Of a DNA stretch of 64,000 nucleotides, positions 32,541-62,609 are shown in pieces. Made by a program: the position numbers and the translations under genes. Under the pieces are notes generated by a model. It was not told the origin of the DNA. It was given only the letters and a program-made list of their open reading frames with translations, and made no database searches. This DNA comes from Escherichia coli (GTDB taxonomy: Bacteria > Pseudomonadota > Gammaproteobacteria > Enterobacterales > Enterobacteriaceae): NCBI RefSeq assembly GCF_003019035.1, contig NZ_CP027447.1. One strand, 5' to 3'. Positions within the stretch are counted from its first letter, which is position 1. The number at the start of each line of letters is the position of its first letter.

Positions 32541-33326
32541 ATGAATTCAAAAAAGCTTTGTTGCATATGTGTGTTATTCTCGCTGCTTGCAGGATGTGCC
32601 TCTGAATCTTCTATTGATGAAAAGAAGAAAAAAGCTCAAGTCACACAAAGTAATATTAATAAAAACACTCCCCAGCAACTGACAGACAAAGATTTATTCG
32701 GTAATGAAACCACTCTGGCCGTATCCGAGGAGGATATTCAAGCTGCGCTTGATGGAAATGAGTTCCGCGTTCCCCTTAATTCTCCTGTAATACTTGTTCA
32801 ATCCGGCAACCGCGCACCGGAAACCATTATGCAGGAGGAGATGCGAAAATATTATACTGTTTCCACATTCTCTGGTATCCCGGACAGGCAAAAGCCTCTG
32901 ACTTGTAACAAAAACAAAGATAAAAATGAGAACGAGGATGTTGCCAGTGCTGAAAATATGAACTGGATGCAGGCATTGCGTTTTGTGGCTGCGAAAGGGC
33001 ATCAGAAAGCGATTATTGTTTACCATGATACGTTGCAGACAGGAAAATATGACACTGCACTGAAATCAACAGTATGGTCCGACTATAAAAATGACAAACT
33101 CACTGACGCTATCTCCCTGCGCTACCTGGTACGTTTCACGCTGGTGGATGTGGCAACAGGTGAGTGGGCTACCTGGTCGCCGGTGAATTATGAATATAAA
33201 GTGCTTCCACCATTGCCCGACAAGAATGAAGCCAGTACGACTGATATGACAGAGCAGCAAATCATGCAACTTAAGCAAAAGACCTATAAAGCGATGGTAA
33301 AAGATTTGGTTAACCGCTATCAATAA
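32541..33326 (+). CDS. yafT: Lipoprotein YafT-like, unknown function
   Basis: 261-aa ORF, lipobox LLAGCAS, AT-rich gene preceded by a very AT-rich 330-bp region. Confidence 0.75.
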
Positions 33327-33462
33327 TAAATTATATCTGCCGCCAGGAATTTCTGGCGGAAATAATACAAAATTCTTTGCATAAGAAATTTTTCTTGACA
33401 AAGACAGTGCAAGAAAGGACATGGAATCCGGAGTTAAAAACTGTTTGTTTTAGAATATTTAA

Positions 33463-33942
33463 TTATTTAACTGCTGAATCTTCCTTGCGAGAAATATATC
33501 CATTATTACATTTCATGCCATTTTTAATATAGATTGCTCCTGGGAAAATTCCCGTATTATTACCGCAGGGGTGATAATTAGTATTGACATATCCTGTGAC
33601 AAAAGGAGCTATTAAAGGTGCTATTACGATAGCTATTAGTAAAAATATAAGAGTTAGCTGTATTGTTATGTCTGTGGCGAAATTGACTACCTTCGTTTTT
33701 TTGATTAAGAATGATTTTATTATCGTAAGTAAAATTACATGAATATTTAAAAAGGAAAACGACATGAAACCGAAGCACAGAATCAACATTCTCCAATCAT
33801 AAAATATTTCCGTGGAGCATTTTATTATTGAATATAGAGGTTTAACTCCGGTAAAAAACAAAGAAGCATTGAATGCAGGGAAAAATAATATGGCCATAAA
33901 AAACATCGAAAGAAACTCTTTTAATTTAACATGTAAACGCAT
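33463..33942 (-). CDS. ykfM: Small polytopic inner-membrane protein (YkfM-like); candidate immunity protein
   Basis: 159-aa ORF, very hydrophobic with several predicted TM segments, AT-rich; 9 nt downstream of the 309-aa ORF. Confidence 0.55.
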   Translation of the reverse strand: MRLHVKLKEFLSMFFMAILFFPAFNASLFFTGVKPLYSIIKCSTEIFYDWRMLILCFGFMSFSFLNIHVILLTIIKSFLIKKTKVVNFATDITIQLTLIFLLIAIVIAPLIAPFVTGYVNTNYHPCGNNTGIFPGAIYIKNGMKCNNGYISRKEDSAVK

Positions 33943-33951
33943 GGTTAATCC

Positions 33952-34881
33952 TCATATCACGGGTGGAGTGTTAAGAACATACATAAATGGAGTCATGTTT
34001 TCCCTTTTCCATTTATCAAGTTCCTGTTGCCGTTTTAGTCCATCTCTAATTGCATATTTTAATTTTTCTGATAAATGGCATTGAGCATCGATTTCATTTA
34101 AAACAACTGTACACACTATCCCTGTCAGTAAAATTGCTCCTCCGACAAGAATTACTGGAAAGCCAAAGCTAACACAGGCAAAAGAAGCCAGGCTTCCAAT
34201 AGCGGTTGCAACACCACCGGCTATAACTGCTTTGGCCACATCCATTGAAAAATCGCCAAGAAAATTAACCAGATCTCGCTCTGAACTCATAATAAATTCT
34301 ATGGTTCTCCAGGCTACTGAAAACCAGATACAGAACTTAACTCCTTTTATTGATTCAGATAAAGCTCCTCGCCAGCCAATAGCGAGTTCCAGAACTTGAG
34401 GCGCTCGTGAAGAGAAAATATATTTACCGAGCTTTTCTAAAAGCCAGGGGCTGGATGTTGTGATTTTTATATATTTCTCTCCAAGTATTTCAAAGTAACT
34501 TGCTTTTGTATACTTTAAGGCATTAAGGTTAAATATAATTTTCCCATTGTCATCAAACTCAGTCATTAATTTACCCGCGTTAACTAACCAGGCGAGTGTA
34601 TCTTTTATACCTGAAGGATGTGTAGTGATAAAATGAATGTAATCAAATGATGTTATTGGGCTGAGTATTTTTTTTGCAACATCAAGTGTCAAGAGAATAA
34701 CATGATGAGTGTTCTGATGCCTTAACTCATCAATGAGTGGGACGTCGTTAAGATAAGGGTGCTGAGGTACTAGCTGGTTTATCGGCTGAGCCCCCCGAAG
34801 AATGTCACCCACATAATCAGCCCACTGTGCATTCTGTGTGTTGTTGTTATTCCTTAAACCAGCCATTTTATCTCTCCGCAA
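33952..34881 (-). CDS. Membrane-anchored hypothetical protein (apparent full-length YafU-like); candidate Hcp-associated effector
   Basis: 309-aa ORF with soluble N-terminal region and C-terminal Gly/Ala-rich hydrophobic hairpin (VAKAVIAGGVATAIGSLASFACVSFGFPVILVGGAILLTGIVCTVVL); 28 nt downstream of the Hcp paralog. Confidence 0.55.
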   Translation of the reverse strand: MRRDKMAGLRNNNNTQNAQWADYVGDILRGAQPINQLVPQHPYLNDVPLIDELRHQNTHHVILLTLDVAKKILSPITSFDYIHFITTHPSGIKDTLAWLVNAGKLMTEFDDNGKIIFNLNALKYTKASYFEILGEKYIKITTSSPWLLEKLGKYIFSSRAPQVLELAIGWRGALSESIKGVKFCIWFSVAWRTIEFIMSSERDLVNFLGDFSMDVAKAVIAGGVATAIGSLASFACVSFGFPVILVGGAILLTGIVCTVVLNEIDAQCHLSEKLKYAIRDGLKRQQELDKWKRENMTPFMYVLNTPPVI

Positions 34882-34909
34882 TAGTAATTTATTATGTTAT
34901 TACAGTAAG

Positions 34910-35392
34910 TTACTGTACACGATCCTGCCATTTACTCATTGCATTCGTACCGGCTAACGTATGCTCCCAGGAAATATCTTCATAAATAAAGGCAATTCTC
35001 TCCTGTGGTTCCAGTTCTTTTTCCAGGACAGCATGCGGTGTGACAAAATCAATACTTGATATTCGGGCTTTTGACAGATTTATTTTATAATAAGGCTGGT
35101 AAATACCCGCTTTACTGGTTCGGTAGAGTATAAATTCACATAATGCCATTTTTTCATTGTCACTAAGTGCTTTTGCCAGCAATGGTGAGGATTTATCAAC
35201 CGGTTTGGTGATAATTAATTCATGATGATTGACATTTTGACTTCTTGAGATGGAATGCATTAACGCATAAACCATGATCTGATCTTTATGTTCTGGCTGC
35301 GCTTTGTTTCCGACAGAATCAAGCGTTGAGCAACCTGCTGAAATTAGCCCTTGTGTCTCTCCACTCAAAGATAAATAACTTATATTTGCCAT
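34910..35392 (-). CDS. Hcp-family protein (divergent TssD paralog)
   Basis: 160-aa ORF; YLSLSGETQGLISAGCSTLDSVGN aligns with canonical Hcp YISITGQTQGNITAGAFTADSVGN at 55478; similar C-terminal ...SWEH... motif. Confidence 0.75.
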   Translation of the reverse strand: MANISYLSLSGETQGLISAGCSTLDSVGNKAQPEHKDQIMVYALMHSISRSQNVNHHELIITKPVDKSSPLLAKALSDNEKMALCEFILYRTSKAGIYQPYYKINLSKARISSIDFVTPHAVLEKELEPQERIAFIYEDISWEHTLAGTNAMSKWQDRVQ

Positions 35393-35415
35393 GATAATCT
35401 CCTTTAATTAAATAA

Positions 35416-36769
35416 TTATTTTTCGGCCGTGGTACCGGTTGCCGCCTCTGGCATGACGTTATTCTTCAGCAGCAGCCAGCGGCTTAACACGCCTTCGAGT
35501 CGCTCATTAATTTGTTTTTCCAGCGCATCTGTATTCTGCTTCTGCGCACGGGCATCCTGGTACTGCGTCAACAGAGACTCAACGGGTGTTTCCTGCCCCA
35601 GTCCCCGCTCCGCCTGCCAGATGACATTTTTGATATAGGAAAGGGTTAGTCCCTCTTTCTCGCGCTGCATCACTAGATCTGCAAAAGCATGTAAGTCCTG
35701 GCGGGTCTGCAACCAGCCACGCAACTGCGGGCTACTCTGTGCGCGGGTTTTGAGTGCCTCATTCCATTGTGTCGAGGCCTGTTGCTGTTGCAGGCTTTCC
35801 GGCCAGCGACTGTCGGCAACACGCATCATCTGCATCCCGGTTTCCAGCGGCTGTACCGGGGAGGTATCAAGAAGTTGTTGCAGCCTGCGCTCATAGTTTT
35901 CGAGTTCAGGTGAGGCCATCCACACCGTTGCTGCGCCCTGAGCGGTGTCGTTAACCTGTAACAGTTGCTGCTGCACCGGATAGACCTGCCACCACCACAA
36001 TGCTGAGGCGACAGCCACTGAACAGGCGATCCCTGCGATAAACCCTCTTACCATACTGCCTTGCTTTATCACACTGGCCTGTGGGGGATTCTCTGTCAGA
36101 CTGCGCACTTCCACTTTCATCTCAGGCAGGCCAGGCAGGGGAGGCACTACCGCTTCTGGTGTGGAAGATGCCTGTGTTTCCGGGGCATAAATCAGCGTTC
36201 TGACCGTGGTCTGTGCGGCGTTCTCAGTGTTACTCTTCAGCTGGGGTTCAAGCCGTTTACGCGTGTTCTGCATAAAATAGAGCAGATTCTCCACGCGCGG
36301 AACGCGCTTCAGTTCCACCTGCTGGAGCTTATCGCAGATAAGCTGCAATGCCCGCTCTGTGCGGTAGATCAGTGGTAGGTCGGATTCCGCAAAGGAGATT
36401 TGCTGACGCAGAATATTGCCGGTTCGGGAGTTAAACCAGTCCAGCATTTCAGTACGCGCCGGGCCGCCCTGCGGCCAGAACTTATCCCAGTCGTGGCTTA
36501 CCATTGCCGCCAGCAGTTCCGCACCTTCGCAGAATCCCGCCAGTCCCTGTGTCCGTGTCCGGGCAAGCGTATAGTAGGTGGCGGTGTGTAAATCCACACC
36601 GTTGGCTTTAAAAATCGCCAGCGCCAGCGACTCCACCAGTTTCCAGTTCAGCTCAGGCTGTGACGGGTGGCTGGCTTTGTTTATTTCCTCGCGGATGGCG
36701 CTGAATTCCGGCAGCCCGCGCGGGTCACTGCCGGTAACGATAGTTTGTGTCAGTACGTTACTATTCATC
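35416..36769 (-). CDS. T6SS-associated ImpA_N-domain membrane protein (VasL/TagA-like)
   Basis: ORF 35416-36858; likely start MNSNVLTQ at 36769 behind a GGAGG RBS; N-terminal TssA-like region (DPRGLPEFSAIREEINKASHPSQPELNWKLV...) plus one TM segment (GFIAGIACSVAVASALWWW); last gene of a V. cholerae-like cluster order. Confidence 0.7.
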
Positions 36770-36778
36770 CCTGCCTCC

Positions 36779-39700
36779 TCAGTACAGTGTGTCTGACAGA
36801 CCAAACTGGCTGAACAACCCACCGCTGAACGGGTTATCTTCCGTGTCGGTATGCACACGGTAGGTCATCGCGCCACCGTCCACGCTAAAGCGCACGGTAA
36901 AGTTGCCATCCTGTACTCCGGTCAGTTGTCCGGCCCCGAACAGGCGGAACTGCGCCCACGGCCCGCTGAAGCTGATACTGCGCGGCGCGTTGCCGCTGGT
37001 GCCGATGAGCGTCAGCTTACTTTCGTTGCCTTCGCGCATGTTGTTAGGCCAGACCAGATGGGCGGTATAGTTACGGCCCTGGCTGTAATCGACTAACTGA
37101 CCGTCAAGGTTCAGTACACTGCGGCGTTTATTGCCTGAAAGCGATACCGTTTCCACGGCAAAGGATGTTCCCAGACCGTTCTGTTTGCTGAAGAAGATGT
37201 CACGGATTTTCTGCGCAGTTTCCAGTTGCGCAATAATATCTTCGCGAATAATGACGTTGTTATCGCCGTCTTCCAGGCTCAGATCATTGTCGATAAACAG
37301 TTTCAGGTTCTGCTGGTAGAAGGTATCCAGTATGCCATCCGGTTTAAAGAATCGTTCGAAGGCATCCAGTGAGGCATCCTGTGCAGAACGTGGATTAAAC
37401 GGATAGTTATTTGCCAGTTGCTCGTTAAACGGTTTCACCACGCTGTCGCGCCAGTCCACTTCCATATAGTGAACGGCTTCCACCATCACCACATGCCAGG
37501 CCTGGTCAGCCAGCCTGCCTACCCAGCGGTTGAGCGGAGCAGGCAGTGTTTTTGCCATCTGGCGGGTGGCGAATATTGGATCGCTGCTGTTCTGATCAAG
37601 CCTTAACTGCACGGCTTTCAGCGCCGATTTCCCTGGTACAGGCGCGTTCTGGATTGCCAGCAGGTAGCGGTGTAACTCGGTGAGCTGCTGGTATACGGCC
37701 TGCATCGTGCTTTCTTTGTCTTTCTGTACTGTCAGGGTACTGTTTTCCGGGGCGAATTCATGCCCGAGGCGGGTAAGTAACTGGTAATCCGGCTCTGCCA
37801 GGGCCTCATCCCGCTCTTTGGCAGAGAGTTTTTCAGAAAAGACTCCTGGCTGTGTGTTGTCACGCAGCACGGTCAGCGCCCGCTGCAAAGGCTGGTCGCC
37901 GCTGATAACCTGCTCCAGAGTGCCAGTCAGTTGTCCAATGGACTCAAAATTGCGGATATTGAGATTGTCCATCCCGGCCCGCCAGGTGGCGGTGTAGTCG
38001 CTGATATACTGCTCGGTCAACTGGCGCTGAATTTCCGCGCGGTCGGCGTCACTGTATTTCACGCTGCGGGTGAGGTTGAGTACCCAGGAATCCATCGCCG
38101 TCAGTTCAACCAGTTCATCGCGCTGTTTTACAAAATAGCTTTGCAGGCCGTAACGGGTAAGAAACTGTGGAACAACCAGTTTGTTATCATCGGCAGATGT
38201 AAACACCTGGTCAAAGGTTGGCCCTACCTGGTCACGCAGATTGAGGTCAGCAGGAAGAACGCCCAGCGCCCGCGTTTTCAGGCTCTGATAAACCCGCTGG
38301 TAGACAGGCAGTTTGCTCAGTTCTTTCTGTGCTGATACCACGGGCTTGTCATATGGCGTCCAGCGGCTGATGGCATCACCGTCGCCCGCCTGACGCTCTG
38401 CATGCCAGTCAGTATGAGCCAGCGCGTAGTCAAGATGGGACATCAGTTGTGTCTGGATATCGCGCTGTCCGTGGAACTTTTCGCTCCAGCGTTTTGCCAT
38501 ATACTGCTTCACCACCTCATTGTTACGTCCGCTTTTGTCCTCCAGCATTCGCATCACGCGCAGCACCGCGAGTTTTTCTTCACTCTCCGGCGGCGCGGCA
38601 TTCATCGCTTTGACCAGCCCGTTAAACAGCGAGGGCAGGTAACGCTGCTCCAGAAGTTGCAGATAGGTCTGTTCCACATATGGCCCGATACGTCTCCCCT
38701 GGTACAGGCCCATATCGGCCAGACGGCTGCGCTCGCCCCAGTCGCCATAGGCCAGTGTTGCATCGCGTACCGGGTTCAGCAGTGGCAGTTGCAGGTTGCC
38801 AAAGTCATCTTCCCCCTGCGGAGGCGGCACGTCCATAAAGGCTTTGGCCTGCTTAAGCACGGTGATGCCGGACTGATAGTTACCGTTGTAATAGTGATGC
38901 CAGCCGGTGATGAGCAGCAGTGCCGCCACGCCGCCTGTGGCAGAGAAAACCGTCAGGCGGCGACGGGAACGCATCAGCCAGGCGCTGCTCTCTGTTGCCA
39001 GATTAGGCTCTGCGAGTAATGCCTGCGGGAACAGGCTGCGGGTGAAATAAGGCGCGGTGTCCACCAGAGGCCAGGACGCCAGTGGGTTATTGCCCAGTCG
39101 GTACTGGCGGGCAGCAGACTGGGTGAATATATCATCCATCTGTCCACGCTGAAGCGAAGAGGTGAGATAGACACCACGCAGCATCACGTTCATATTTTCG
39201 CCGTCAAGCAGACCCTCAAGCAGTGACACCAGCGGCTCACGGCTTCCCTGCATCTGGCGGGAAAAACTGAATAAAGACGCGCGGGTGTGAGTCTGGGTGA
39301 CCATCAGATCCGGCAACGCCAGATTCATTCGATCCACCCATGTCTGCCAGAAAGCATTCAACTCTGTTCGCCAGTCATCATTTTCATGAGCACGGCGGGT
39401 GAACGTAACACCCAGAATCGCATCGCGATCCTGTCTGTTCAGTGACTGAAACAGGGCGGCAAAACCCTGCAATAAATCAAGCCGGGTCAGTACCACGTAA
39501 ACCGGTAACTGGCAATGAAGATGCTGGCGTATATCCTGTAAGCGGCTGCGCAGCGTCTGTAACAGATGCTCGCGGCGGCGTTTGTCTGCGGTCAGCAGAT
39601 CGGGTAAATCGAGTGTCAGAATAATCCCGTTCAGCGGCTGGCGCGCGCGCTTTTCCTTCAGCCAGCCGAGGGCATGTTCCCACAGACGGCGATGCAGGAT

Positions 39701-40303
39701 ATCCGCATCAGCGGGAGCGCAGAGTGTGCCGTCGATATCAAAGATCACCGCCTGTTTACCGACATGGGGCGTGAGGTACAGGCGTTGTTCTGCGCCGCGC
39801 GCGCCCTCCGGGGCATAAATAATGTCTGACGGAAACCCCTCGCGCAGCAGTGTCGTTTTGCCACTGCCCACAGGACCGATGACCATATACCACGGCAACT
39901 GCCACAGGAAACGGCGGTTGTCGAGATGGCGTTGCAGGCGCAGCAGCCAGCGGTCGAGGTAACGCTGCTGGGCGTTCAGTTCCACACTGAGCGCATCAAC
40001 GGCTTCCTCGCGCTGTTGCTTTTGCATTTTTTCAAGCTGTTGCAGGCGCTTCATTACCCGGACGGTAAGCCACACCAGGGCAATAATCCCCCACGCCGCC
40101 GTTGCCAGCCAGCGGTTCGCCAGTGGTTTGAGCCACTGCTCTTCATACAGCGTCCATGTCGGGCCTTTCCACCAGATCCATACCAGCAGGAAAATCCACG
40201 CCAGTATCAGCAGCCAGAATGCAGAAACTTTAAACCGGGGCATCGCCGGGCGCAGGGCTGATTTGAGTTCGCTGAATAGTCGGGGTGTTGGTAATCTGAA
40301 CAC
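36779..40303 (-). CDS. tssM: T6SS membrane-complex protein TssM (IcmF)
   Basis: 1174-aa ORF, N-terminal TM segments, Walker A GPVGSGKTT. Confidence 0.93.
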   Translation of the reverse strand: MFRLPTPRLFSELKSALRPAMPRFKVSAFWLLILAWIFLLVWIWWKGPTWTLYEEQWLKPLANRWLATAAWGIIALVWLTVRVMKRLQQLEKMQKQQREEAVDALSVELNAQQRYLDRWLLRLQRHLDNRRFLWQLPWYMVIGPVGSGKTTLLREGFPSDIIYAPEGARGAEQRLYLTPHVGKQAVIFDIDGTLCAPADADILHRRLWEHALGWLKEKRARQPLNGIILTLDLPDLLTADKRRREHLLQTLRSRLQDIRQHLHCQLPVYVVLTRLDLLQGFAALFQSLNRQDRDAILGVTFTRRAHENDDWRTELNAFWQTWVDRMNLALPDLMVTQTHTRASLFSFSRQMQGSREPLVSLLEGLLDGENMNVMLRGVYLTSSLQRGQMDDIFTQSAARQYRLGNNPLASWPLVDTAPYFTRSLFPQALLAEPNLATESSAWLMRSRRRLTVFSATGGVAALLLITGWHHYYNGNYQSGITVLKQAKAFMDVPPPQGEDDFGNLQLPLLNPVRDATLAYGDWGERSRLADMGLYQGRRIGPYVEQTYLQLLEQRYLPSLFNGLVKAMNAAPPESEEKLAVLRVMRMLEDKSGRNNEVVKQYMAKRWSEKFHGQRDIQTQLMSHLDYALAHTDWHAERQAGDGDAISRWTPYDKPVVSAQKELSKLPVYQRVYQSLKTRALGVLPADLNLRDQVGPTFDQVFTSADDNKLVVPQFLTRYGLQSYFVKQRDELVELTAMDSWVLNLTRSVKYSDADRAEIQRQLTEQYISDYTATWRAGMDNLNIRNFESIGQLTGTLEQVISGDQPLQRALTVLRDNTQPGVFSEKLSAKERDEALAEPDYQLLTRLGHEFAPENSTLTVQKDKESTMQAVYQQLTELHRYLLAIQNAPVPGKSALKAVQLRLDQNSSDPIFATRQMAKTLPAPLNRWVGRLADQAWHVVMVEAVHYMEVDWRDSVVKPFNEQLANNYPFNPRSAQDASLDAFERFFKPDGILDTFYQQNLKLFIDNDLSLEDGDNNVIIREDIIAQLETAQKIRDIFFSKQNGLGTSFAVETVSLSGNKRRSVLNLDGQLVDYSQGRNYTAHLVWPNNMREGNESKLTLIGTSGNAPRSISFSGPWAQFRLFGAGQLTGVQDGNFTVRFSVDGGAMTYRVHTDTEDNPFSGGLFSQFGLSDTLY

Positions 40304-40321
40304 AAAAACTCCTGTTCTCTT

Positions 40322-41737
40322 TTATTGTTCTGCCGTGAATTTTTGTTCTAGCTGCTCAAGCAGGGACGGCTCCCAGTCTGCCACCATCATCTGCAATCCC
40401 ATCCTGAACAACATCCGGTACTGTTGCTGCGCAAGCTGTATCAGCCCCGCCTCCTCCGTCAACTGTGCGGCAAGGTACTGGCGGTGAAACTGATCGCGGG
40501 GTTCACCGGCGGGCAACGTATCCAGATACCGTAAGGCGGCTTCCAGCCCCTGTTCATCAAAACACAACCGCGCAGCCTGAATATCTTCATTACTCACCTG
40601 TATGACTGGCGCGGCCTGGTTACCTGGCTGAGTTGCAAGCCATTGCTTCGTTTTTTCAGAAACAAACGGTGTGTGGTCGTTAAACAGAAGATCGGCAAGA
40701 GCGGGCAGACGGCCAAGGAAGGAAACGACTTCATCGCGGATGGCATCGGCCACGGCGGTATAGCCAAGACGGTGCGCCGTCTGTGCAGAAATGCAGTGAC
40801 CGTCCAGCCAGTAGGGTGCCAGCAATACGCTTTTTTCCACCTGCTGCCACAGCGCCATATCGGCACTACCGAGCTGAGCATGGTAATCCGCCACCATATC
40901 GGCAGAGACCGCAGCCAGTGGGGTACGTCCATCGCTTTCCGCCTGGGGCGTACTGGTGATGGATTGCCACAGGGCATGGCGGCGGAGGCGATAGCCCAGC
41001 GGCGAGTCCGGCTGGCGTTCACATAAAATAGCCGCCACTTTTAACAGCGTGTCGCGCCAGGCTTTGTCGTCGTGACTGTCGATGGCGATCTGTAGAGCCG
41101 GAGCACTGGTTTGCGTCATGCTGCTTTCAGACGTGACGGTGGTTTGTGGTGAACTACCGGAGGCCGCCGGAGTGGGGACCGGAGCAGGAGCCGCACGATT
41201 AAACGTACGCTGGTACAGGGCAAAAAGATCATCGGTAGCCTGTGCCAGTTCCGGGACGTTATGTGACTGCCAGCACTGTGCCAGTTTCGCCAGTTCACCT
41301 AATAGCGCATCGCGCTGCGCTGTGGCGGCGTTCTGTGAAAAGCCTTCAATACCTGTTTCAAAGCGTTTAATGACCTGGCTGGCGAAGCGTTTTTTATGTG
41401 CCATATTCTGCGGCGCGGCCACCGCCCAGTAATGTTCCACATACAGTGCCAGCAGGCGCAAGGCCAGAAGCGGATCACCGGCATGTTGCAGGGTTCTCAG
41501 CAGATGCGCCAGCAGACGAAAATCCTTACTCTCCGAAGCCAGAATGACCAGCCCCCGGCGCTGGAGTTCCGGGATATCCAGTTGGCTGTGGGCCAGTGAA
41601 CCCAGTTTGACGATTTCGCCGTCGATATACTCCCAGTCCGGGTTGTCATCTTTTAGCGCCGATGCCTGTTTTTCTTCAGGCAGGTTTTCCAGCAGGTGCG
41701 ATATCCAGACATTCGGATCGCGTAAGTCCATTGCCAT
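40322..41737 (-). CDS. tssA: T6SS baseplate/cap protein TssA
   Basis: ORF 40322-41803; probable start MAMDLRDPNVW at 41737; ImpA_N-type N-terminal domain. Confidence 0.85.
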   Translation of the reverse strand: MAMDLRDPNVWISHLLENLPEEKQASALKDDNPDWEYIDGEIVKLGSLAHSQLDIPELQRRGLVILASESKDFRLLAHLLRTLQHAGDPLLALRLLALYVEHYWAVAAPQNMAHKKRFASQVIKRFETGIEGFSQNAATAQRDALLGELAKLAQCWQSHNVPELAQATDDLFALYQRTFNRAAPAPVPTPAASGSSPQTTVTSESSMTQTSAPALQIAIDSHDDKAWRDTLLKVAAILCERQPDSPLGYRLRRHALWQSITSTPQAESDGRTPLAAVSADMVADYHAQLGSADMALWQQVEKSVLLAPYWLDGHCISAQTAHRLGYTAVADAIRDEVVSFLGRLPALADLLFNDHTPFVSEKTKQWLATQPGNQAAPVIQVSNEDIQAARLCFDEQGLEAALRYLDTLPAGEPRDQFHRQYLAAQLTEEAGLIQLAQQQYRMLFRMGLQMMVADWEPSLLEQLEQKFTAEQ

Positions 41738-41741
41738 ATTT

Positions 41742-42485
41742 TTATTCTCCCGCCCAGTGGCAGGCGTCGCGTAGCGGCGCAATAACCCGTGCCAGCCCGT
41801 CAATGTTAAAGGTCAGCTTTCCGGCTGCGTTGTCTGCGCCGGTATCCACCGTCAGCGTTGTTGCGCCGAACAGTTGCTTAATTTCATCAATCCCGGACAG
41901 CCCCCGGCTGGACTCCAGCAGGGTGCCGTTCTCGCGCACAAACCAGTGGCTGCGCAATACCCGGCTGTCGGCATTCAGGGTGACGGCGATATCATGGACA
42001 TCCAGAGGGTGCACCAGCGCCACCTGCATCCGGGTGATATTGTCCACACAGCTGAACATCAGCACCGGGCGAGGCGGAACATGGCCGATAGCCGGGGTGG
42101 TTACCACCACCGTCGGGCGTTCCCCCGGCACCTGCGTCACCAGCAGCTCTGTGGTGTTGCCCTGGCGACGTTTTTCCTGCTCTATGGCACGGGTCCAGGC
42201 TTCGCCCACAAAACTGGCTTTGACCAGCGCCCCGTCAAACCCTGACGGGGACAGCGGTTCCAGCAGGCGGTCATAGCAGTCAAGCCGCTCCAGCGCCGCG
42301 AACTCCCGCCGACAGGACTGCATGGCCTGTAATGTGGCTGTCGCATCCGGCGGGGTCGCTGTGGCGACGGCTACCGCCACACCGGCCATTGACGATGTTT
42401 CTGCGGGCGCGGCACTGGCGGGTAAGCCCGCCATCAGGCCCGCAATAAACCATCCTGTCTGCCGGAAAACGCGCAACCTGCTCAT
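41742..42485 (-). CDS. T6SS-associated secreted/periplasmic protein (VasI-like by position)
   Basis: 247-aa ORF with signal peptide (…LMAGLPASAAPA); sits between clpV and tssA as vasI does in V. cholerae. Confidence 0.5.
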   Translation of the reverse strand: MSRLRVFRQTGWFIAGLMAGLPASAAPAETSSMAGVAVAVATATPPDATATLQAMQSCRREFAALERLDCYDRLLEPLSPSGFDGALVKASFVGEAWTRAIEQEKRRQGNTTELLVTQVPGERPTVVVTTPAIGHVPPRPVLMFSCVDNITRMQVALVHPLDVHDIAVTLNADSRVLRSHWFVRENGTLLESSRGLSGIDEIKQLFGATTLTVDTGADNAAGKLTFNIDGLARVIAPLRDACHWAGE

Positions 42486-45241
42486 AAAACCGTTTCATCT
42501 TCTGTGACGGACTCGTCGTCCAGAGCATCTTCCACATCTGCTGTGAACGTGCCGTCTGCCGCCGACAGCCGAATCCGGGCAATCGCCGTGTTGGCTGCCA
42601 TCTTCTGCAACAGCAGCAGGGAGAGCGGCGGCAGCATGTCGCCGTCAATGACCGATTCGAGCATCCTCGCGCCGTTTTCCGCTCGGGTGACGCGGCTCAT
42701 GATTTCGTCCGTCACTTCCGGCTCAATAATCACTTCCGCGCCAAAGCGACTGCGCAGCACGTTATCCAGACGGGTGAGTTTCCCGGCAATAATGGTGGCG
42801 AGCGTCTCTTTCGACAACGGCAGGTACGGCACCACTTCCATACGCGCCAGCAGGGCAGGTTTAAAGAAGTCCGCCAGCACCGGATAGAGGGCTTCCTGCA
42901 TGGTCTCCGGGTCATCGGCGTGTTCGACAATCACCTGGTAGCCAAGGTTGGAGGTGAGGAAGAAGACGATGTTTTTACAGTCAATCAGGCGACCTTCGCC
43001 GTCTGCCATCTCGCCCTTGTCAAACGCCTGGTAGAACAGGTTGAGGACATCCGGGTGCGCTTTTTCCACTTCATCGAGTAGCACCACCGAGTACGGTTTC
43101 TGGCGAATCGCTTCGGTCAGCACGCCGCCTTCGCCATAGCCAACGTAGCCCGGAGGCGAACCAATCAGGCGTGAAACGGTGTGTTTCTCCTGGAACTCGG
43201 ACATATTAATGGTGGTCAGGTACTGGCGACCGCCGTAGAGCAGTTCTGCCAGTTGCAGAACGGTTTCGGTTTTACCCACGCCGCTGGGGCCAGCCAGCAG
43301 GAACGCGCCGAGCGGGCGTCCCGGGCGGCGCAGGTCGGCGCGTGCAGTCAGCAGATGCTTATGCAGGCTGGCAATCGCCAGATCCTGGCCTTTGATGGTG
43401 TCGCCCAGCCATTTCGGCAGGTCGGTGATGACCGACATTTCATTCTGCGACAGGCGGTTAAGCGGAACGCCAGTCCATTCGGCAATCACCGCCGCAATCT
43501 GTTTTTTATCGACGTGCGGGGAGACCTGCAACCGGTCGTTATGCAGGGCGTCCAGTTCGGCAGTAAGCTGTGCCAGCCGTTGTACCGGGGAAACTGTTTC
43601 AGCGGTCTCTTCCGGCTGTTCGCTGCCAGCTTCATCAGCCGGTTCGGCATCGGTATTATCCTGTTCTGCCTCAGACGGCGTATCCTCCGCGGCATCTGCG
43701 TCCGGCAACGACGCCGCATCGTCTTCTGCCATACCCAGTAACTGCTGGCGCAGCGCGATAATTTCCTGTACCAGCGTCTGTTGCTGATGCCAGGCGGCTT
43801 CCAGTTCGTCCAGCGCCGTCAGCGTTTCATCATACTGCACCAGCACCTCCGTCATCCGTGAGGTGTCGGTACGCAGCCCGATGCGAAGCTCGCGCTCAAG
43901 CTGGCGAATTTCCGCCTCCTGCTGGTGGCTCAGGGTGGTCAGCGCCGAGATTTGCTTCGGTGGCGATGAAAGGTTAATGGCCACGCGGGCGCAGGCCGTA
44001 TCCAGCACATCAATGGCTTTGTCCGGCAACTGACGTCCGGAGAGATAACGCTCGCTTAATGTCGCAGCGGCCTGCAAGGCATCATCGTCAATCAGGACGC
44101 CGTGAGACTGTTCATAGACCGCCGACAGACCACGCAGAATAATGGTGGCTTCGGCGGCACTGGGTTCGCTGACCTTCACCAACTGGAAGCGGCGCGACAG
44201 GGCGGCATCTTTCTCGAAGTATTTTTTGTACTCGCTCCAGGTGGTGGCGGCGATGGTTTTCAGCTCGCCGCGCGCCAGTGCCGGTTTGAGCAGGTTGGAG
44301 ATATCCAGCCCGCCCTGCTGGTTGCCCGCCCCAATCAGGGTATGCGCTTCGTCGATAAACAGAATGACCGGCACCGGGGAGGATATGACCTCCGCCATCA
44401 GCCCCTTGAAGCGTTTTTCAAACTCACCTTTCACCGATGCCCCGGCCTGCAATGCACCCAGGTCAAGGGTCATAATGTCGGTGTTTTTCAGTTTGTCCGG
44501 CACCTGGCCTGCCACGATGCGCAGCGCCAGCCCTTCAATCAGCGCGCTTTTACCCACACCCGCTTCACCCACCACCACCGGATTGTTTTTACGACGGCGG
44601 CAGAGAATGTCGATCATCAGGTCGATTTCGTGGTCGCGGCACAGTACCGGATCAAGCCTGCCGTTACGGGCATCTTCGGTCATGTTTTTGGCGTAGCGGG
44701 CAAGCAGGGTGTCAGCAGCGTCCGTCAGTGTGCCTGCGCCTTTACCGTCTGCATCCGGCACGACTGATTCCGCCGACTCCTGTGTCCACTGCACAAAGTC
44801 CTGCTGCAGACGGTCACGGTTAATGCCGGTCAACAGCCGGGCGGCAGCAGGCGGTATATAACGCAGCGGCGAATGCAGCAGGGCCAGCAGCAACACGCCG
44901 CCGCGCAGTTCGCTGTGCTGCATCTCAGCCGACGCCAGCAGCCAGCCCTCTTTCAGCCACTCAACCAGCATCGGGGAAAACGCCGGGTAGCTGTCCGCAG
45001 AACGGGCGGTTGTGTAGTTCTCCACCGTCAGTGCCAGGCGCAACTCTTCCATGCCAATATCGCCCTGGCGGGTAATAACCCGCAGGTCACTGCGTGGCAT
45101 GGCGAGCATCTGAATAAGCACATGGCTGACGGTAATTTCCGCTGCCTGCTGGCTCATACATTCAGAGGCGGCCATCTCCAGCGCCTGGCGGGAGAACAGG
45201 TTAAGCCGTTTTACCAGCGTGGGAAGATCAATCTGGATCAT
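42482..45241 (-). CDS. clpV: T6SS AAA+ ATPase ClpV (TssH)
   Basis: ORF 42482-45355; start set at MIQIDLPTLVKRLN (45241); two AAA+ modules (Walker A GEAGVGKS and GPSGVGKT). Confidence 0.93.
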   Translation of the reverse strand: MIQIDLPTLVKRLNLFSRQALEMAASECMSQQAAEITVSHVLIQMLAMPRSDLRVITRQGDIGMEELRLALTVENYTTARSADSYPAFSPMLVEWLKEGWLLASAEMQHSELRGGVLLLALLHSPLRYIPPAAARLLTGINRDRLQQDFVQWTQESAESVVPDADGKGAGTLTDAADTLLARYAKNMTEDARNGRLDPVLCRDHEIDLMIDILCRRRKNNPVVVGEAGVGKSALIEGLALRIVAGQVPDKLKNTDIMTLDLGALQAGASVKGEFEKRFKGLMAEVISSPVPVILFIDEAHTLIGAGNQQGGLDISNLLKPALARGELKTIAATTWSEYKKYFEKDAALSRRFQLVKVSEPSAAEATIILRGLSAVYEQSHGVLIDDDALQAAATLSERYLSGRQLPDKAIDVLDTACARVAINLSSPPKQISALTTLSHQQEAEIRQLERELRIGLRTDTSRMTEVLVQYDETLTALDELEAAWHQQQTLVQEIIALRQQLLGMAEDDAASLPDADAAEDTPSEAEQDNTDAEPADEAGSEQPEETAETVSPVQRLAQLTAELDALHNDRLQVSPHVDKKQIAAVIAEWTGVPLNRLSQNEMSVITDLPKWLGDTIKGQDLAIASLHKHLLTARADLRRPGRPLGAFLLAGPSGVGKTETVLQLAELLYGGRQYLTTINMSEFQEKHTVSRLIGSPPGYVGYGEGGVLTEAIRQKPYSVVLLDEVEKAHPDVLNLFYQAFDKGEMADGEGRLIDCKNIVFFLTSNLGYQVIVEHADDPETMQEALYPVLADFFKPALLARMEVVPYLPLSKETLATIIAGKLTRLDNVLRSRFGAEVIIEPEVTDEIMSRVTRAENGARMLESVIDGDMLPPLSLLLLQKMAANTAIARIRLSAADGTFTADVEDALDDESVTEDETVL

Positions 45242-45249
45242 AAACGTCC

Positions 45250-46011
45250 TTATCGAAGTAATTTGTTTAGCTGGTGCAGGATGTCCTGCGTCTGGCTGTC
45301 CAGCCGCAACAGATAGAACAGGTAAAACAACGCCAGCACGACAACGCCACCACAAAAAATATGTTTAATGGTCAGGTGACTGATGAGCTGATAACGCCCG
45401 CCCTGGTTTTTTTTGTCCTGGTGTAACAGCGGGAAAGGGGCATCGCCGCGTAGTTTATGCAGGACGTGGTACAGGCGGCGGTAGATCTGCTCAAATTCTC
45501 CCTGATCCTGTGCTGCCACTTTGTAGCGCCCGCGAAATCCCAGAGAAAAACAGAGCCAGAGAAATTCCAGCAGATCCTGGTAACGTTTGGGTTCACGGAT
45601 CAGGCGCTCCAGCAGGATGAAAACTTTCTCGCCACCCCAGGCTTCGTTGTGGAAATGGACCAGCAATGACTGCTTGATCCACTCGTTCTTGTTCGACCAG
45701 CCGTTACCGAGCGCCGCTTCATCAATAAACGTGCAGAGGATGTAGCGAAACGAGATAATCACGCCCGGTTCGTAGCCCTGCTCCTGAAGCAGTTGCTCCA
45801 CGGCCTGAACATCCGTCACCACCTGAGCAAAAAGATGCTCCGGCATCGTCTGGCTGTTCATGGTTGAAAGGCGCATCACCATACCGAGGAGCGGCGTGGC
45901 TGCGTCGATCATCGGATTCAGGCTGTTGCCACGAAGCGCGAGATGGTAGTCGCGCTGGCCTTTTTCGTCGTGTCCGATAAATGGTGGCAGAGACAGTGAC
46001 TCCTCATCCAT
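45250..46011 (-). CDS. tssL: T6SS membrane-complex protein TssL (DotU family)
   Basis: 253-aa ORF with DotU-like cytoplasmic domain and single C-terminal TM segment; no peptidoglycan-binding extension. Confidence 0.85.
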   Translation of the reverse strand: MDEESLSLPPFIGHDEKGQRDYHLALRGNSLNPMIDAATPLLGMVMRLSTMNSQTMPEHLFAQVVTDVQAVEQLLQEQGYEPGVIISFRYILCTFIDEAALGNGWSNKNEWIKQSLLVHFHNEAWGGEKVFILLERLIREPKRYQDLLEFLWLCFSLGFRGRYKVAAQDQGEFEQIYRRLYHVLHKLRGDAPFPLLHQDKKNQGGRYQLISHLTIKHIFCGGVVVLALFYLFYLLRLDSQTQDILHQLNKLLR

Positions 46012-46015
46012 CGTC

Positions 46016-47347
46016 TTACCCTCTTATAGCCCACAGTTGCATATTCAGGTCCGGAAAACTGCCGGAGACATGCAGTGCAACGGCCCCGGCGGCAGCTATT
46101 TCAGCCCAGGCCTGGCCGCTTTTGTCGAGTTCGAAATAGCTGAACCCGGAATGGTAGGGAAGCTGGCGGGGAGCCACCATCAGTGCACGCAGAGGAATAC
46201 CGGGGATCTGCACACTGACCATATTGCGGATTTTTTCCGGCGAGGAAATTTTCGACTGCTGGATAAACTGGCGCTGGATCTGATCGACCGGCATGTTTGC
46301 CGCCACGGCCAGCACAAAGGTGGCAGATTGCAGCAGTTCTGTGTCATGGATATCGGCCTGCCAGATACCGTCACGCAGATGCAGCGGCAGATTGACGGCT
46401 CTTGGCGACAGTACGGTATGCAGCGCCCGTTTGACTTCCGGTAACAGCGTTTTAAATGTTTTGGTCAGGTCATGATGATCATACACATCAAGCGGGCAGG
46501 GCAGGCGCGACGGCTCGGTAAAGGTCATCAGTTCACCCAGCAACCCCGCAAGATCAAGGTAGAAATCTTCCGGGTGGAGCTGGGATCGACGAGCGCGATG
46601 GGTAAACCGGGTCTGGTTACGGTTAAGTAACTGCAACATCATAAATTCCGCCACATCCGCGATGCCGCTCTGCGCCGGAGAGCCAATGCGGTTTGCCAGA
46701 TCGCTTGCCCGTCCGCCAATGGCCCCCTGTACCTCTTTGAGATAAACACGCAGTTTCTTACTGACCTGAATATTCTGGCAGGAGGGGATAAAATCGTCAT
46801 CCAGCGTCAGGGAGCCGTCGGCATGGCGATCGCTGATACGGCAAAGCGGGAGCGTAATATAGGCGCTCATATCTTCTGCACCGCTCATAATGCGCGGCGT
46901 AAGTTGACCCAGCGTCAGTGTTCGCGCGTCACCTTCTTCTGAATGCAAATCCCGGACATCGGCATAATTCAGCCGGTAACGCCCGATTCGCCGCCCGTCG
47001 CTGATTTCATTTCTCACATCACTGGCGACCGGCAGAGCGAGGTAAATATTGCGGCTTCTTTCGTCCGGAAAATTTTGCGGGTGCAGCGGATCGGGCAGTG
47101 CGTCCTGGTCGGGGATAGAAAAGACGGTGCCGTCGGGCAGTGTGCCTGACGCGCTGTCAATCATGATCTTACCCTGCGCCAGCAGTTCATTGTTGAGGGT
47201 GAGTTCGGTAAATCCCCAGGATAAATCATTCATGGCCCGGAAACGCTGGTTATCCAGGTAGTCGTTGTAACGCTGCTGTTGCTGGAAATGGTGTGGGCGC
47301 ATCAGCATCCCTTCCTGCCACATCACCTTGTTGCGGGTGGTTGCCAT
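46016..47347 (-). CDS. tssK: T6SS baseplate protein TssK
   Basis: 443-aa ORF; N-terminus ...VMWQEGMLMRPHHFQQQQRY typical of TssK. Confidence 0.88.
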   Translation of the reverse strand: MATTRNKVMWQEGMLMRPHHFQQQQRYNDYLDNQRFRAMNDLSWGFTELTLNNELLAQGKIMIDSASGTLPDGTVFSIPDQDALPDPLHPQNFPDERSRNIYLALPVASDVRNEISDGRRIGRYRLNYADVRDLHSEEGDARTLTLGQLTPRIMSGAEDMSAYITLPLCRISDRHADGSLTLDDDFIPSCQNIQVSKKLRVYLKEVQGAIGGRASDLANRIGSPAQSGIADVAEFMMLQLLNRNQTRFTHRARRSQLHPEDFYLDLAGLLGELMTFTEPSRLPCPLDVYDHHDLTKTFKTLLPEVKRALHTVLSPRAVNLPLHLRDGIWQADIHDTELLQSATFVLAVAANMPVDQIQRQFIQQSKISSPEKIRNMVSVQIPGIPLRALMVAPRQLPYHSGFSYFELDKSGQAWAEIAAAGAVALHVSGSFPDLNMQLWAIRG

Positions 47348-47349
47348 AA

Positions 47350-47874
47350 TTATTCATCCTCTTTTTTCATTTCGATGCTGCTTTGACGTACATGCACCAG
47401 CAGGCGGTAATGGTGGCCGGTTCCTTCCACCGTCTCGATTTGTTTCCATTCAGTGGCCTGGTCATCGGAGAAATAGGCCACGACACCAATAAACTGCGTT
47501 TTCTCATCCAGCTTTACCGGCGGCAGGGTTTTGATGGTGTCCGGCAACAGGTTGAAATCCTGGTGGTCGATATAGTTTTTACCCAGCACATCCGGTAGCG
47601 GCGTACTGGCTATCTGGTCATAGTCGGCTGCCAGCAATTTTGAGTCGTCAGTCAGGTACACCAGTTGCACATCCACGGCGGCTGATTCACCCTCCGCATT
47701 GGTATTGGTGTCCGGTTCGGTCAGCAGGGTGACGGTTATTTCCGAAGGTTGCTCCTTCAGGCTCCCGACCTGGATATCCGGGTTTTTGATCACCTCACTG
47801 ATTTTTTTCGCCGTTTCGCAGCCGGTTAATATGACGCACATCAGCACGCAGGCCAGAAACGCCTTCCTGTTCAT
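47350..47874 (-). CDS. tssJ: T6SS outer-membrane lipoprotein TssJ
   Basis: 174-aa ORF with lipobox ILTGCE; position between tagH and tssK. Confidence 0.85.
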   Translation of the reverse strand: MNRKAFLACVLMCVILTGCETAKKISEVIKNPDIQVGSLKEQPSEITVTLLTEPDTNTNAEGESAAVDVQLVYLTDDSKLLAADYDQIASTPLPDVLGKNYIDHQDFNLLPDTIKTLPPVKLDEKTQFIGVVAYFSDDQATEWKQIETVEGTGHHYRLLVHVRQSSIEMKKEDE

Positions 47875-49172: not shown

Positions 49173-49175
49173 AAT

Positions 49176-52072: not shown

Positions 52073-52075
52073 CTG

Positions 52076-52489
52076 TCAGTCCACCCGGTAATGCTGGCTG
52101 CCATTCGGTGCCATATCAAATTCAAGCACTTCATGCGTTTCGTTAAATGTCACCCAGGCTGTAATATGAAACGTCATATCCAGCGGGCTGGCGGCGGATG
52201 AAACCACAGCCTGCACTTCAGCGTGTGAGATCCGGGGTTCATAGCGTTCTATACATTGCGCGATGGCCCGACTCATTGATTGGCGGAAGTTTTCAGCCCC
52301 TTCCGGTTCATCAATGCCCAGTTCAGGCGCACCCCGGCAACTACCGGACCGGGTATTAAGAATGTTTCGCAGGTTCTGGCGAATGGACTGCCTGAGCGCA
52401 TGAATACTGCTTCCCTGCCGGTTTCTGGCCGGTGAGGCTTCCATACGCTCAAAAAGAGAACCTGTGGTTCTTTCCCGATCCGGTATCAT
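52076..52489 (-). CDS. tssE: T6SS baseplate protein TssE (gp25-like)
   Basis: 137-aa ORF between tssC and tssF. Confidence 0.85.
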   Translation of the reverse strand: MIPDRERTTGSLFERMEASPARNRQGSSIHALRQSIRQNLRNILNTRSGSCRGAPELGIDEPEGAENFRQSMSRAIAQCIERYEPRISHAEVQAVVSSAASPLDMTFHITAWVTFNETHEVLEFDMAPNGSQHYRVD

Positions 52490-52495
52490 GGCGTG

Positions 52496-53971: not shown

Positions 53972-54021
53972 ACTGAAAATCCTTCTGTTTTAGCTGTGTT
54001 TCTGAAACCGGCTTTTCGCCA

Positions 54022-54246: not shown

Positions 54247-54280
54247 GCCTGGATAACCCTGTTTAATGAAATAGTGGTGG

Positions 54281-62598: not shown

Positions 62599-62609
62599 CA
62601 GGAGGAAAT

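Follow-up and report, generated by a model that had tools for sequence, protein, structure and literature searches.

Among T6SS effectors that act on membranes, Tse4 of the Pseudomonas aeruginosa H1-T6SS is an Hcp-dependent pore former that contains glycine-rich hydrophobic helices and attacks the inner membrane from the periplasm; its binding to Hcp has been demonstrated, and its immunity partner, Tsi4, is a membrane protein. VasX of Vibrio cholerae is a colicin-like pore-forming T6SS effector that depends on VgrG. For Tme1 and Tme2 of Vibrio, T6SS-dependent secretion has been reported, and in E. coli they caused periplasm-specific toxicity, depolarisation, and PI uptake, with VasX as the positive control for depolarisation (PMC7046647). 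Each cognate Tmi protects specifically against its Vibrio Tme, and the Tme family, which is distinct from VasX and Tse4, is defined by an almost invariant DxxK motif, followed by a predicted TM helix and a flanking D (PMC7046647).

The locus analysed here lies in a 64,000-nucleotide stretch of E. coli DNA (the window) at the end of the T6SS-2 main operon; in the E. coli chromosome, the T6SS-2 island sits at the tRNA-Asp gene aspV. Based on ORFs and on the PGAP annotation of strain SCU-301 transferred by coordinate offset, the operon upstream of the variable segment described below spans 35416–54781 on the minus strand and contains vasL, tssM, tssA, vasI, tssH, tssL, tssK, tssJ, tagH, tssG, tssF, tssE, tssC, a small ORF, and tssB. 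The initial annotation had added three distal minus-strand ORFs at 34910–35392, 33952–34881, and 33463–33942, separated by gaps of 23, 28, and 9 nt, and our ORF coordinates agree with these positions and gaps. The first, hcp, closes the structural part of the tssB...vasL main operon and opens the variable segment; it encodes a 160-aa, 18.0-kDa TssD of the "Hcp2A" type. The second, which directly follows hcp as the second-to-last gene of the operon, had been given as a 309-aa protein, a length that comes from the TTG-started longest ORF. By direct reading of the sequence, we identified a GGAG Shine-Dalgarno sequence at 34874–34877 (minus strand), which overlaps the mechanically chosen TTG start at 34881 and is located 7 nt upstream of an ATG at 34866. 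This ATG is the start used in PGAP, in most orthologues, and in the published table; it gives a protein of 304 aa and 34.0 kDa (33952–34866; WP_000908052.1) and a gap to hcp of 43 nt. From here on, we refer to this gene as tme. The third gene, ykfM (33463–33942), starts 9 nt after the end of tme and encodes a 159-aa protein with a pI of 9.6 (WP_001236645.1). The DNA of the trio is 100% identical to that of SCU-301.

In the 309-aa protein, in which no catalytic motif had been recognised earlier, the Tme signature DxxK-helix-D is present, and WP_000908052.1 is already catalogued as a Tme family member by Fridman et al. 2020 (PMC7046647). Supplementary Data 5 of that study gives a Tme domain at residues 122–277 (RPS-BLAST, E = 3.7e-36), an Hcp upstream at 43 nt, and a 159-aa 3-TM protein downstream at 9 nt, and it also includes WP_001236645.1 (YkfM) as the Tmi partner. 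Because the same accession, with Hcp upstream and YkfM downstream, had been tabulated there, the classification is not new; the Hcp linkage of this Tme subgroup was listed in that table without analysis. Thus, of the proposed new effector-immunity module, the novelty does not stand, while the functional reading of a cargo-matched Hcp, a membrane effector, and a membrane immunity protein is supported by family, synteny, and cassette behaviour. Literature searches on yafU/ykfM, on ykfM with T6SS, and on Tme/Tmi with E. coli T6SS2 turned up no work in which the E. coli pair had been studied. We consider it highly probable that the T6SS-2 (aspV) main operon ends distally in a Tme/Tmi pair encoded together with an Hcp matched to this cargo.

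The 304-aa protein has a clade-specific N-terminal region (residues ~1–120) followed by the Tme domain (~122–277), which contains D209-x-x-K212, hydrophobic Gly/Ala-rich helices at ~213–256, and D260. D209-V-A-K212 is invariant in an alignment of nine sequences, and among distant relatives (hmmalign, 124 representatives) D209 is kept in 112 of 123, K212 in 119 of 123, and D260 in 117 of 119. The hydrophobic stretch falls between DxxK and D260; Kyte-Doolittle values in 19-residue windows reach 1.9 at residues 222–224 and 2.7 at 230–250, as expected from the Gly/Ala-rich hydrophobic C-terminal region that had been described, and Phobius places a TM helix at 234–256 (PMC7046647 table). An AF2 model (pLDDT 76.7) has a small beta-sheet at residues 100–137 and then four long helices at 165–290, while a model built from the nine sequences (pLDDT 46) was unusable. 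A profile search returned 702 cluster representatives at E ≤ 1e-3, and most of the matches listed align to about profile positions 120–280 alone. Some relatives carry an N-terminal PAAR domain (P0114 and P0127, 135–138 bits), and in two others (P0147 and P0179) the Tme domain is joined to the N-terminal region of the VPA1263 effector family, which we take to be MIX-type. Neither the 304-aa protein nor YkfM matched a Pfam or NCBIfam model, a PADLOC scan returned nothing, and sequence searches against the PDB with Tme alone and with a 112-sequence profile gave chance matches only; one of these, to AhlB (E = 2.9) across the hydrophobic hairpin, was discounted as evidence. Neither Tme nor Tmi has a solved structure or a fold match that is informative.

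The E. coli protein shares with Tme1 (WP_015297525.1) and Tme2 (WP_047706523.1) of the V. parahaemolyticus T6SS1 (encoded as Tme1/Tmi1 and Tme2/Tmi2 pairs) the C-terminal Tme domain (DxxK, TM helix, D), a length of about 300 aa, the lack of a signal peptide, a link to a T6SS, and a directly downstream gene for a DUF1240-like membrane immunity protein with 3 to 6 helices. It differs from them in being distant in sequence, in its enterobacteria-specific N-terminal region, and in its position inside the T6SS-2 structural operon, right after an hcp with which it is exchanged. Like Tse4, it is a small-to-medium candidate cargo with Gly-rich hydrophobic helices and a membrane immunity partner; however, we detected no sequence relationship between the two (no Pfam, NCBIfam, or PDB match), and binding to Hcp, demonstrated for Tse4, is only proposed for the E. 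coli protein. VasX belongs to the same phenotype class as Tme but is far larger and of another fold family, and no similarity to the E. coli protein was found.

In the E. coli/Salmonella Tme clade, four positions of the Tme domain that are otherwise strongly conserved and near-invariant in the family carry other residues (G137T, R143L, N155A, and D195S), and these replacements could alter or weaken its activity. They are in line with an alternative in which the E. coli/Salmonella Tme has diverged or is decaying, being inactive or repurposed, e.g., against eukaryotic membranes, with YkfM serving another membrane role. The mostly host-related functions to which T6SS-2 of ExPEC/APEC has been linked would fit such a scenario (PMC5874247). 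On the other hand, the core DxxK-helix-D signature is intact, the tme ORF is intact with at least 99% DNA identity in about 2200 complete genomes, and the effector-immunity order with its 9-nt gap is preserved across genera. We regard decay or repurposing of this Tme as improbable.

YkfM was described in the initial annotation as a polytopic membrane protein, and we indeed found three hydrophobic segments on the Kyte-Doolittle scale; the Phobius topology is i12-32o52-75i96-119o (PMC7046647 table). Its predicted periplasmic C-terminal tail contains invariant Y123, C126, G131, Y138, K140, and C145. With three hydrophobic segments and a distance of 9 nt, ykfM agrees with the definition of a Tmi gene (located ≤50 bp downstream of tme, same strand, 3 to 6 TM). 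YkfM itself had no DUF1240 match in Pfam even at E ≤ 10, a failure that would also fit a decayed pair. However, its relatives at 52–66% identity are recorded as PF06836/DUF1240 (P0032, P0037, and Salmonella L002:6926-7375), and YkfM is 52% identical to a Salmonella DUF1240 protein. When a seven-member YkfM alignment was rescanned for PF06836, one member matched at E ≤ 0.001 and three members at E ≤ 0.1, and the pairwise comparison with a Rahnella DUF1240 protein gave E = 6e-5 at 23% identity. YkfM thus appears DUF1240-like only through its relatives, i.e., by transitive membership.

The initial annotation stated that K-12 appears to retain only a C-terminal fragment of the effector gene (yafU) next to ykfM, and this is right: ykfM is intact, and yafU is a C-terminal fragment of the 304-aa gene. 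In K-12/C600, tme has been truncated at an ISAs1 remnant to its C-terminal 118 codons, and the entire T6SS has been lost. In about 420 of the complete genomes, ykfM is present and the N-terminal half of tme is absent. The persistence of ykfM in strains without any T6SS could be taken to favour a role for YkfM other than immunity; however, K-12 ykfM and the ~420 genomes with ykfM but no N-terminal half of tme follow what looks like an orphan immunity pattern, in which an immunity gene is expected to outlast its toxin, and such persistence does not speak for another role.

Of the 5426 complete E. coli genomes, 2543 carry the full-length trio, and Salmonella, Rahnella, Kluyvera, and Photorhabdus have protein-level orthologues; the three ORFs are real genes and not chance ORFs. 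Outside E. coli, Tme with DUF1240 was found in Salmonella, Rahnella, Kluyvera, Photorhabdus (three copies), and Marinimicrobium, and a DUF1240 or DUF1240-like gene lies directly 3′ of tme in all six genera examined. An hcp adjoins tme in Salmonella, Rahnella, and Photorhabdus; in Kluyvera and Marinimicrobium, tme lacks such a neighbour.

A comparison with O157:H7 revealed identity of 98% up to 33195 and of 93–100% from 35448, with 59–70% identity or unalignable sequence in between. The segment bounded by these sharp breakpoints (33196–35447) runs from the yafT 3′ end through ykfM, tme, and the entire hcp into the last ~10 vasL codons. Its GC content is 36.5% compared with 55.8% in the T6SS core, in agreement with the AT-richness noted earlier. 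At the same site, O157:H7 has an Hcp allele that is 54% identical, a 73-aa ORF, a 198-aa ORF, and a DUF1311 gene. In the manner of orphan hcp-effector-immunity islands and other variable T6SS 3′ ends, the O157:H7 allele groups an Hcp with a candidate small effector and, in the DUF1311 gene, an immunity-like partner. Its place in the chromosome and its breakpoints are those of the hcp-tme-ykfM segment, but its cargo and immunity families are different and the O157 cargo is uncharacterised. These comparisons indicate that hcp, tme, and ykfM swap as a single AT-rich 2.25-kb cassette, which goes beyond the content of Fridman et al. 2020.

The same observations bear on whether the 304-aa and 159-aa proteins could have a housekeeping or T6SS-accessory role in the membrane instead of being toxin and antidote. 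In favour of such a role, each is predicted to be a membrane protein, neither has a recognised enzymatic domain, and their genes lie within a structural operon. Nevertheless, the region is strain-variable, being replaced by unrelated genes in O157:H7 and missing from about half of E. coli genomes, and it has the AT-rich composition common in foreign DNA. Moreover, the homologous domain is fused elsewhere to PAAR and VPA1263-type (MIX-type) N-termini for delivery, and in Kluyvera and Marinimicrobium the pairs stand alone amid unrelated housekeeping genes. We therefore give a housekeeping or accessory role very little credence.

Hcp2A had been called a divergent Hcp paralog. It indeed shares only 29% identity with the second Hcp in the cluster (55478–55996), but it is a canonical TssD, matching TIGR03344 with 203 bits (cut-off 58.9; E = 2.9e-60) over residues 1–157 on model positions 1–166 of 167, and the best match among solved structures was P. 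aeruginosa Hcp3 (3he1; E = 3.7e-23). A function as a specialised chaperone is plausible given its genetic co-variation with the cargo, but because Hcp2A, in the published Hcp2A/Hcp2B nomenclature, is the sole hcp of the main structural operon (PMC5874247), it may also be no more than a tube subunit. In the latter case, the Tme/Tmi pair would be the same, Tme would be carried by the VgrG/PAAR spike or by a different adaptor, and the adjacency to hcp would reflect operon position. Delivery by the spike works in this system, as in APEC the PAAR effector XmtU is delivered by the Hcp2B/VgrG2 operon, which is transcribed divergently (PMC5874247). Since other family members have PAAR or MIX-type N-termini and the Kluyvera and Marinimicrobium pairs lack an adjacent hcp, Hcp loading does not appear to be a property of the Tme family. 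At 34 kDa, Tme is also large for an Hcp-lumen cargo, which counts against carriage by Hcp. Three observations stand against a tube-only Hcp2A. First, the hcp allele is exchanged along with the cargo, with breakpoints that leave the entire hcp inside the exchanged segment. Second, Hcp2A-type genes accompany tme away from T6SS clusters, at Rahnella and Photorhabdus loci without T6SS structural genes, and the Hcps encoded there are 57% and 50% identical to Hcp2A, respectively. Third, Hcp-linked enterobacterial Tme proteins have in common the N-terminal motif Y-x-G-D-x-L-R-G-x4-N-Q-L-x-P-Q/K-H, located at residues 18–38, which is missing from the Marinimicrobium member. Overall, we find the tube-only explanation somewhat unlikely.

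For the E. coli locus, our analysis shows how the genes are built and arranged, places them in their families from motif and profile, and documents their synteny and the exchange of the cassette; by analogy, we infer that the activities of the Vibrio Tme proteins apply to the E. coli pair, and we also infer Hcp2A to be the carrier of Tme and the mode in which YkfM neutralises it. In the mechanism that we propose for a Tme/Tmi pair with a cargo-matched Hcp, hcp, tme, and ykfM would be co-transcribed with the structural genes, and the 304-aa Tme would be loaded on the T6SS, the likeliest route being binding of its clade-specific N-terminal region to a hexamer of the Hcp2A type. Sheath contraction would drive Tme into the periplasm of an adjacent Gram-negative bacterium, where the Tme domain, with its DxxK, Gly/Ala-rich hydrophobic helical hairpin, and Asp, would enter the inner membrane from the periplasmic side. 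Once inserted, Tme would dissipate the membrane potential and permeabilise the cell. YkfM, as a three-helix DUF1240-like Tmi of the inner membrane, would shield sister cells, probably by neutralising cognate Tme in or at the membrane and possibly via its conserved Cys-containing periplasmic tail.

We further suggest, tentatively and with somewhat more doubt than confidence, that Hcp2A-type Hcps and the N-terminal motif of enterobacterial Tme form a dedicated recognition pair exchanged as the 2.25-kb cassette, so that the tube subunit would be part of a polymorphic toxin module, and that K-12 ykfM is a functional orphan immunity gene against T6SS-2 with yafU as the toxin remnant. If the E. coli pair acts like Vibrio Tme/Tmi, about half of sequenced E. 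coli would have a membrane-depolarising T6SS-2 weapon, and many T6SS-less strains, K-12 included, would keep the antidote. This would be relevant to competition between strains in the gut and to the roles of the uncharacterised K-12 loci ykfM and yafU; if the orphan-immunity interpretation holds, laboratory K-12 would resist Tme-armed E. coli only through ykfM.

A point against the proposed explanation is that H-NS reportedly silences T6SS-2 in rich medium (PMC5874247). A scan of 33200–35600 for an internal promoter or terminator scored no better than shuffled sequences. A 7-bp inverted repeat at 33340–33359 lies 3′ of both ykfM and yafT; it is not followed by a T-run and was not called as a terminator. 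For the annotation transfer, two stretches of SCU-301 were compared with the window and were identical except for one base in the stretch containing tssH. We rejected a tssH frameshift in the window: the gene is frameshifted in SCU-301, and the window, with one extra base, has an intact ORF.

The initial annotation had placed three ORFs at the distal end of the T6SS operon (33463-35392), and their coordinates, minus-strand orientation and gaps were all confirmed for ORFs taken mechanically. The length of 309 aa given for the middle protein reflects a mechanical ORF from a TTG at 34881, and the real protein starts at the ATG at 34866. Based on the GGAG that precedes this ATG with a 7-nt spacer in the sequence and on the use of this start by PGAP and most orthologues, the protein comprises 304 aa (34.0 kDa), and the gap between hcp (34910-35392) and its gene, here referred to as tme (33952-34866), is 43 nt. 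Hydropathy analysis bore out the Gly/Ala-rich, strongly hydrophobic C-terminal region (approximately residues 213-256 of the 304-aa protein) as well as the polytopic nature of the 159-aa membrane protein YkfM (33463-33942), which has three hydrophobic segments. The cassette is also AT-rich, as had been noted, with 36.5% GC versus 55.8% in the T6SS core.

The 304-aa protein had no significant match in Pfam, NCBIfam, PADLOC or PDB sequence searches, and a word-indexed search returned few homologues, i.e., in E. coli, Salmonella (62% identity), Rahnella (39%) and a few metagenomic sequences. DUF1240 genes beside these homologues led us to Fridman et al. 2020 (PMC7046647), a paper mentioning DUF1240, in which DUF1240 and DUF1240-like proteins (Tmi) are put forward as the cognate immunity family of the T6SS membrane toxins Tme. 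Its Supplementary Data 5 lists WP_000908052.1 (304 aa; Tme domain at 122-277, E=3.7e-36) with a TIGR03344 Hcp 43 nt upstream and, starting 9 nt downstream, 159-aa proteins that have three TM helices, YkfM (WP_001236645.1) among them; at least approximately 1250 E. coli rows in the table are of this type. The effector-immunity interpretation of the initial annotation is well supported; the module cannot be considered new, since the family was defined and functionally characterized in 2020 and the exact protein and its neighbours are tabulated in PMC7046647.

We built a profile from nine close relatives and searched it against 1.84 billion cluster representatives; 702 proteins matched at E<=1e-3, of which 344 reached E<=1e-10, and in most of the matches listed, the match was limited to approximately profile positions 120-280. 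When 124 of these proteins were aligned to the profile, D209 (112/123), K212 (119/123) and D260 (117/119) were conserved among the distant relatives, and G129, G164 and G175 were each conserved in >93%. Hydropathy analysis identified a hydrophobic stretch between K212 and D260; together, these features show that the defining Tme signature is present. At four positions that are strongly conserved elsewhere in the family, the E. coli/Salmonella clade has substitutions (G137T, R143L, N155A and D195S). Named family members include Kluyvera, Photorhabdus, Xenorhabdus, Shewanella, Marinimicrobium and Desulfamplus, and the Xenorhabdus member carries the UniRef name "inner membrane protein yafU". In several distant members (P0114 and P0127; 135-138 bits), a PAAR domain precedes the homologous domain; others (P0147 and P0179) share their N-terminal region with the VPA1263 effector family, and we take this region to be MIX-type. 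Such fusions match the polymorphic-toxin architecture described in PMC7046647.

YkfM itself has no Pfam match. PF06836 is the recorded family of relatives that are 52-66% identical to it, and it can be aligned along its length with Salmonella and Rahnella DUF1240 proteins; based on this, YkfM is DUF1240-like in the sense of PMC7046647 rather than a clean Pfam member. A DUF1240 gene directly follows Tme in all six genera examined. The invariant residues of the YkfM alignment, Y123, C126, G131, Y138, K140 and C145, are all in the C-terminal tail, which is predicted to be periplasmic by the Phobius topology (i12-32o52-75i96-119o) given in PMC7046647. It is a reasonable hypothesis that a periplasmic, disulfide-bonded loop of YkfM contacts Tme.

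Secretion of, and killing by, Vibrio Tme1 and Tme2 depend on T6SS1; both show toxicity in the periplasm of E. coli, with none or much less in the cytoplasm, and cause loss of membrane potential, as do VasX and CCCP, as well as entry of PI, and each is neutralized only by its cognate Tmi (PMC7046647). By homology, E. coli Tme would be delivered to the prey periplasm, where its Gly/Ala-rich helical hairpin would insert into the inner membrane and depolarize the prey, while YkfM in the membrane would provide self-protection.

On the E. coli chromosome, the cassette is flanked by tRNA-Asp (aspV)/yafT on one side and, on the other, by a complete T6SS gene cluster, at its distal end. A megablast of 33300-35500 against 5426 complete E. 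coli genomes gave matches in 3445, with >=80% of the query covered in 2543, and strain SCU-301 is 100% identical over this region. The PGAP gene order in SCU-301 is rnhA, dnaQ, tRNA-Asp and yafT-like, followed on the opposite strand by ykfM, the gene for the hypothetical protein WP_000908052.1, and hcp, and then by the genes for VasL, TssM, TssA, VasI, TssH, TssL, TssK, TssJ, TagH, TssG, TssF, TssE, TssC and TssB, after which comes a divergent second hcp. In the window, VgrG and a PAAR-Rhs protein come after this second Hcp (55478-55996; 172 aa). In APEC/ExPEC naming, the cluster is T6SS2, Hcp2A ends the vipA2...hcp2A operon, and Hcp2B is the Hcp with vgrG2 (PMC5874247). The tssH region (42400-45300) has >=99% identity in only 1 complete genome and 90-95% in 2140, whereas 33300-35500 has >=99% identity in 3001 genomes, and a stretch of vasL matches O157:H7 at 100% identity. 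Conservation is thus mosaic, with a common cassette allele on an uncommon T6SS-2 core allele. The tssH (clpV) ORF (42482-45355, minus strand) is intact in the window; the SCU-301 tssH region is one base shorter and marked as frameshifted by PGAP, while the rest of the compared stretches are identical. This discrepancy is either genuine or due to misassembly of one of the two sequences.

O157:H7 aligns at 98% identity as far as 33195, within the 3' end of yafT, and again at 93-100% identity beginning at 35448, a position within the final ~10 codons of vasL. The breakpoints are sharp on both sides, and 33196-35447 has 59-70% identity or is unalignable. In O157:H7, both vasL and tssM carry frameshift annotations. 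The O157:H7 cassette (L006:4088-5936) encodes an Hcp 54% identical to Hcp2A, a 73-aa ORF, a 198-aa candidate effector with no informative NCBIfam match, and a DUF1311 protein. Because the breakpoints lie outside hcp and O157:H7 has a different hcp allele, hcp is part of the exchangeable cassette rather than the conserved core.

The cassette Hcp is a canonical TssD (TIGR03344, 203 bits) with only 29% identity to Hcp2B of the same cluster; the Hcps next to Tme in Rahnella (57%) and Photorhabdus (50%) are much closer to Hcp2A. An N-terminal motif at approximately residues 18-38 (Y-x-G-D-x-L-R-G-x4-N-Q-L-x-P-Q/K-H) is common to the Hcp-linked Tme proteins of enterobacteria and is lacking in the Marinimicrobium Tme, which has no Hcp nearby. 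These genetic arguments suggest, but do not prove, that Hcp2A and Tme are a matched Hcp-cargo pair; Kluyvera Tme has the motif with no adjacent hcp, and the structural operon contains no hcp other than that for Hcp2A. Beside a convergent hcp in Rahnella bruchi, far from any T6SS structural gene, lie the Tme homologue and a DUF1240 gene. The Salmonella order is vasL, hcp, the Tme homologue, DUF1240, two small ORFs, a second DUF1240 gene and yafT. The ORFs between the two DUF1240 genes in S. enterica (L002:6926-9010) are of 169 and 43 aa, and three tandem DUF1240 copies lie downstream of tme in Photorhabdus (L009:4860-6140); with these extra genes, the loci resemble arrays of Tmi immunity genes, either orphan or alternative.

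We found ykfM in 2997 complete genomes at >=80% coverage and the N-terminal half of tme in 2574, leaving ~420 genomes, in many cases K-12 derivatives, with the predicted immunity gene and without an intact toxin gene, a pattern typical of orphan immunity. As the initial annotation had stated for yafU, K-12/C600 retains a C-terminal piece of tme beside ykfM: ykfM is intact (same protein accession), tme is reduced to its last 118 codons, truncated at an ISAs1 remnant, and the T6SS is absent. In the journals covered by our search, we found no paper testing the E. coli Tme-YkfM pair. Our modest additions are the cassette boundaries taking in hcp, the co-travelling Hcp2A-type Hcps, the Tme N-terminal motif, the substitutions specific to the E. 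coli/Salmonella clade, the conserved and predicted periplasmic YkfM Cys pair, and the reading of K-12 ykfM/yafU as orphan immunity.

The lipoprotein gene yafT (32541-33326, plus strand), whose Salmonella counterpart is assigned to the Pfam YafT family, is conserved beside the cassette site in E. coli, O157 and Salmonella; its 3' end contains the left cassette breakpoint. The genes ykfM and yafT are convergent, and the space separating them holds a 7-bp inverted repeat (CCGCCAG-N6-CTGGCGG; 33340-33359), which has no T-run, was not called by a terminator scan and could be a weak bidirectional terminator. In 58381-62598 (plus strand), the PAAR-Rhs ORF is ended by an in-frame stop at 61987-61989, ~35 codons ahead of the DPIGL core-end motif. 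The stop cuts the Rhs shell off from its C-terminal toxin tip, which is AT-rich (ORF 62059-62598, plus strand), and from a putative lipoprotein immunity gene (62574-63005). It looks like a nonsense mutation disabling the Rhs effector.
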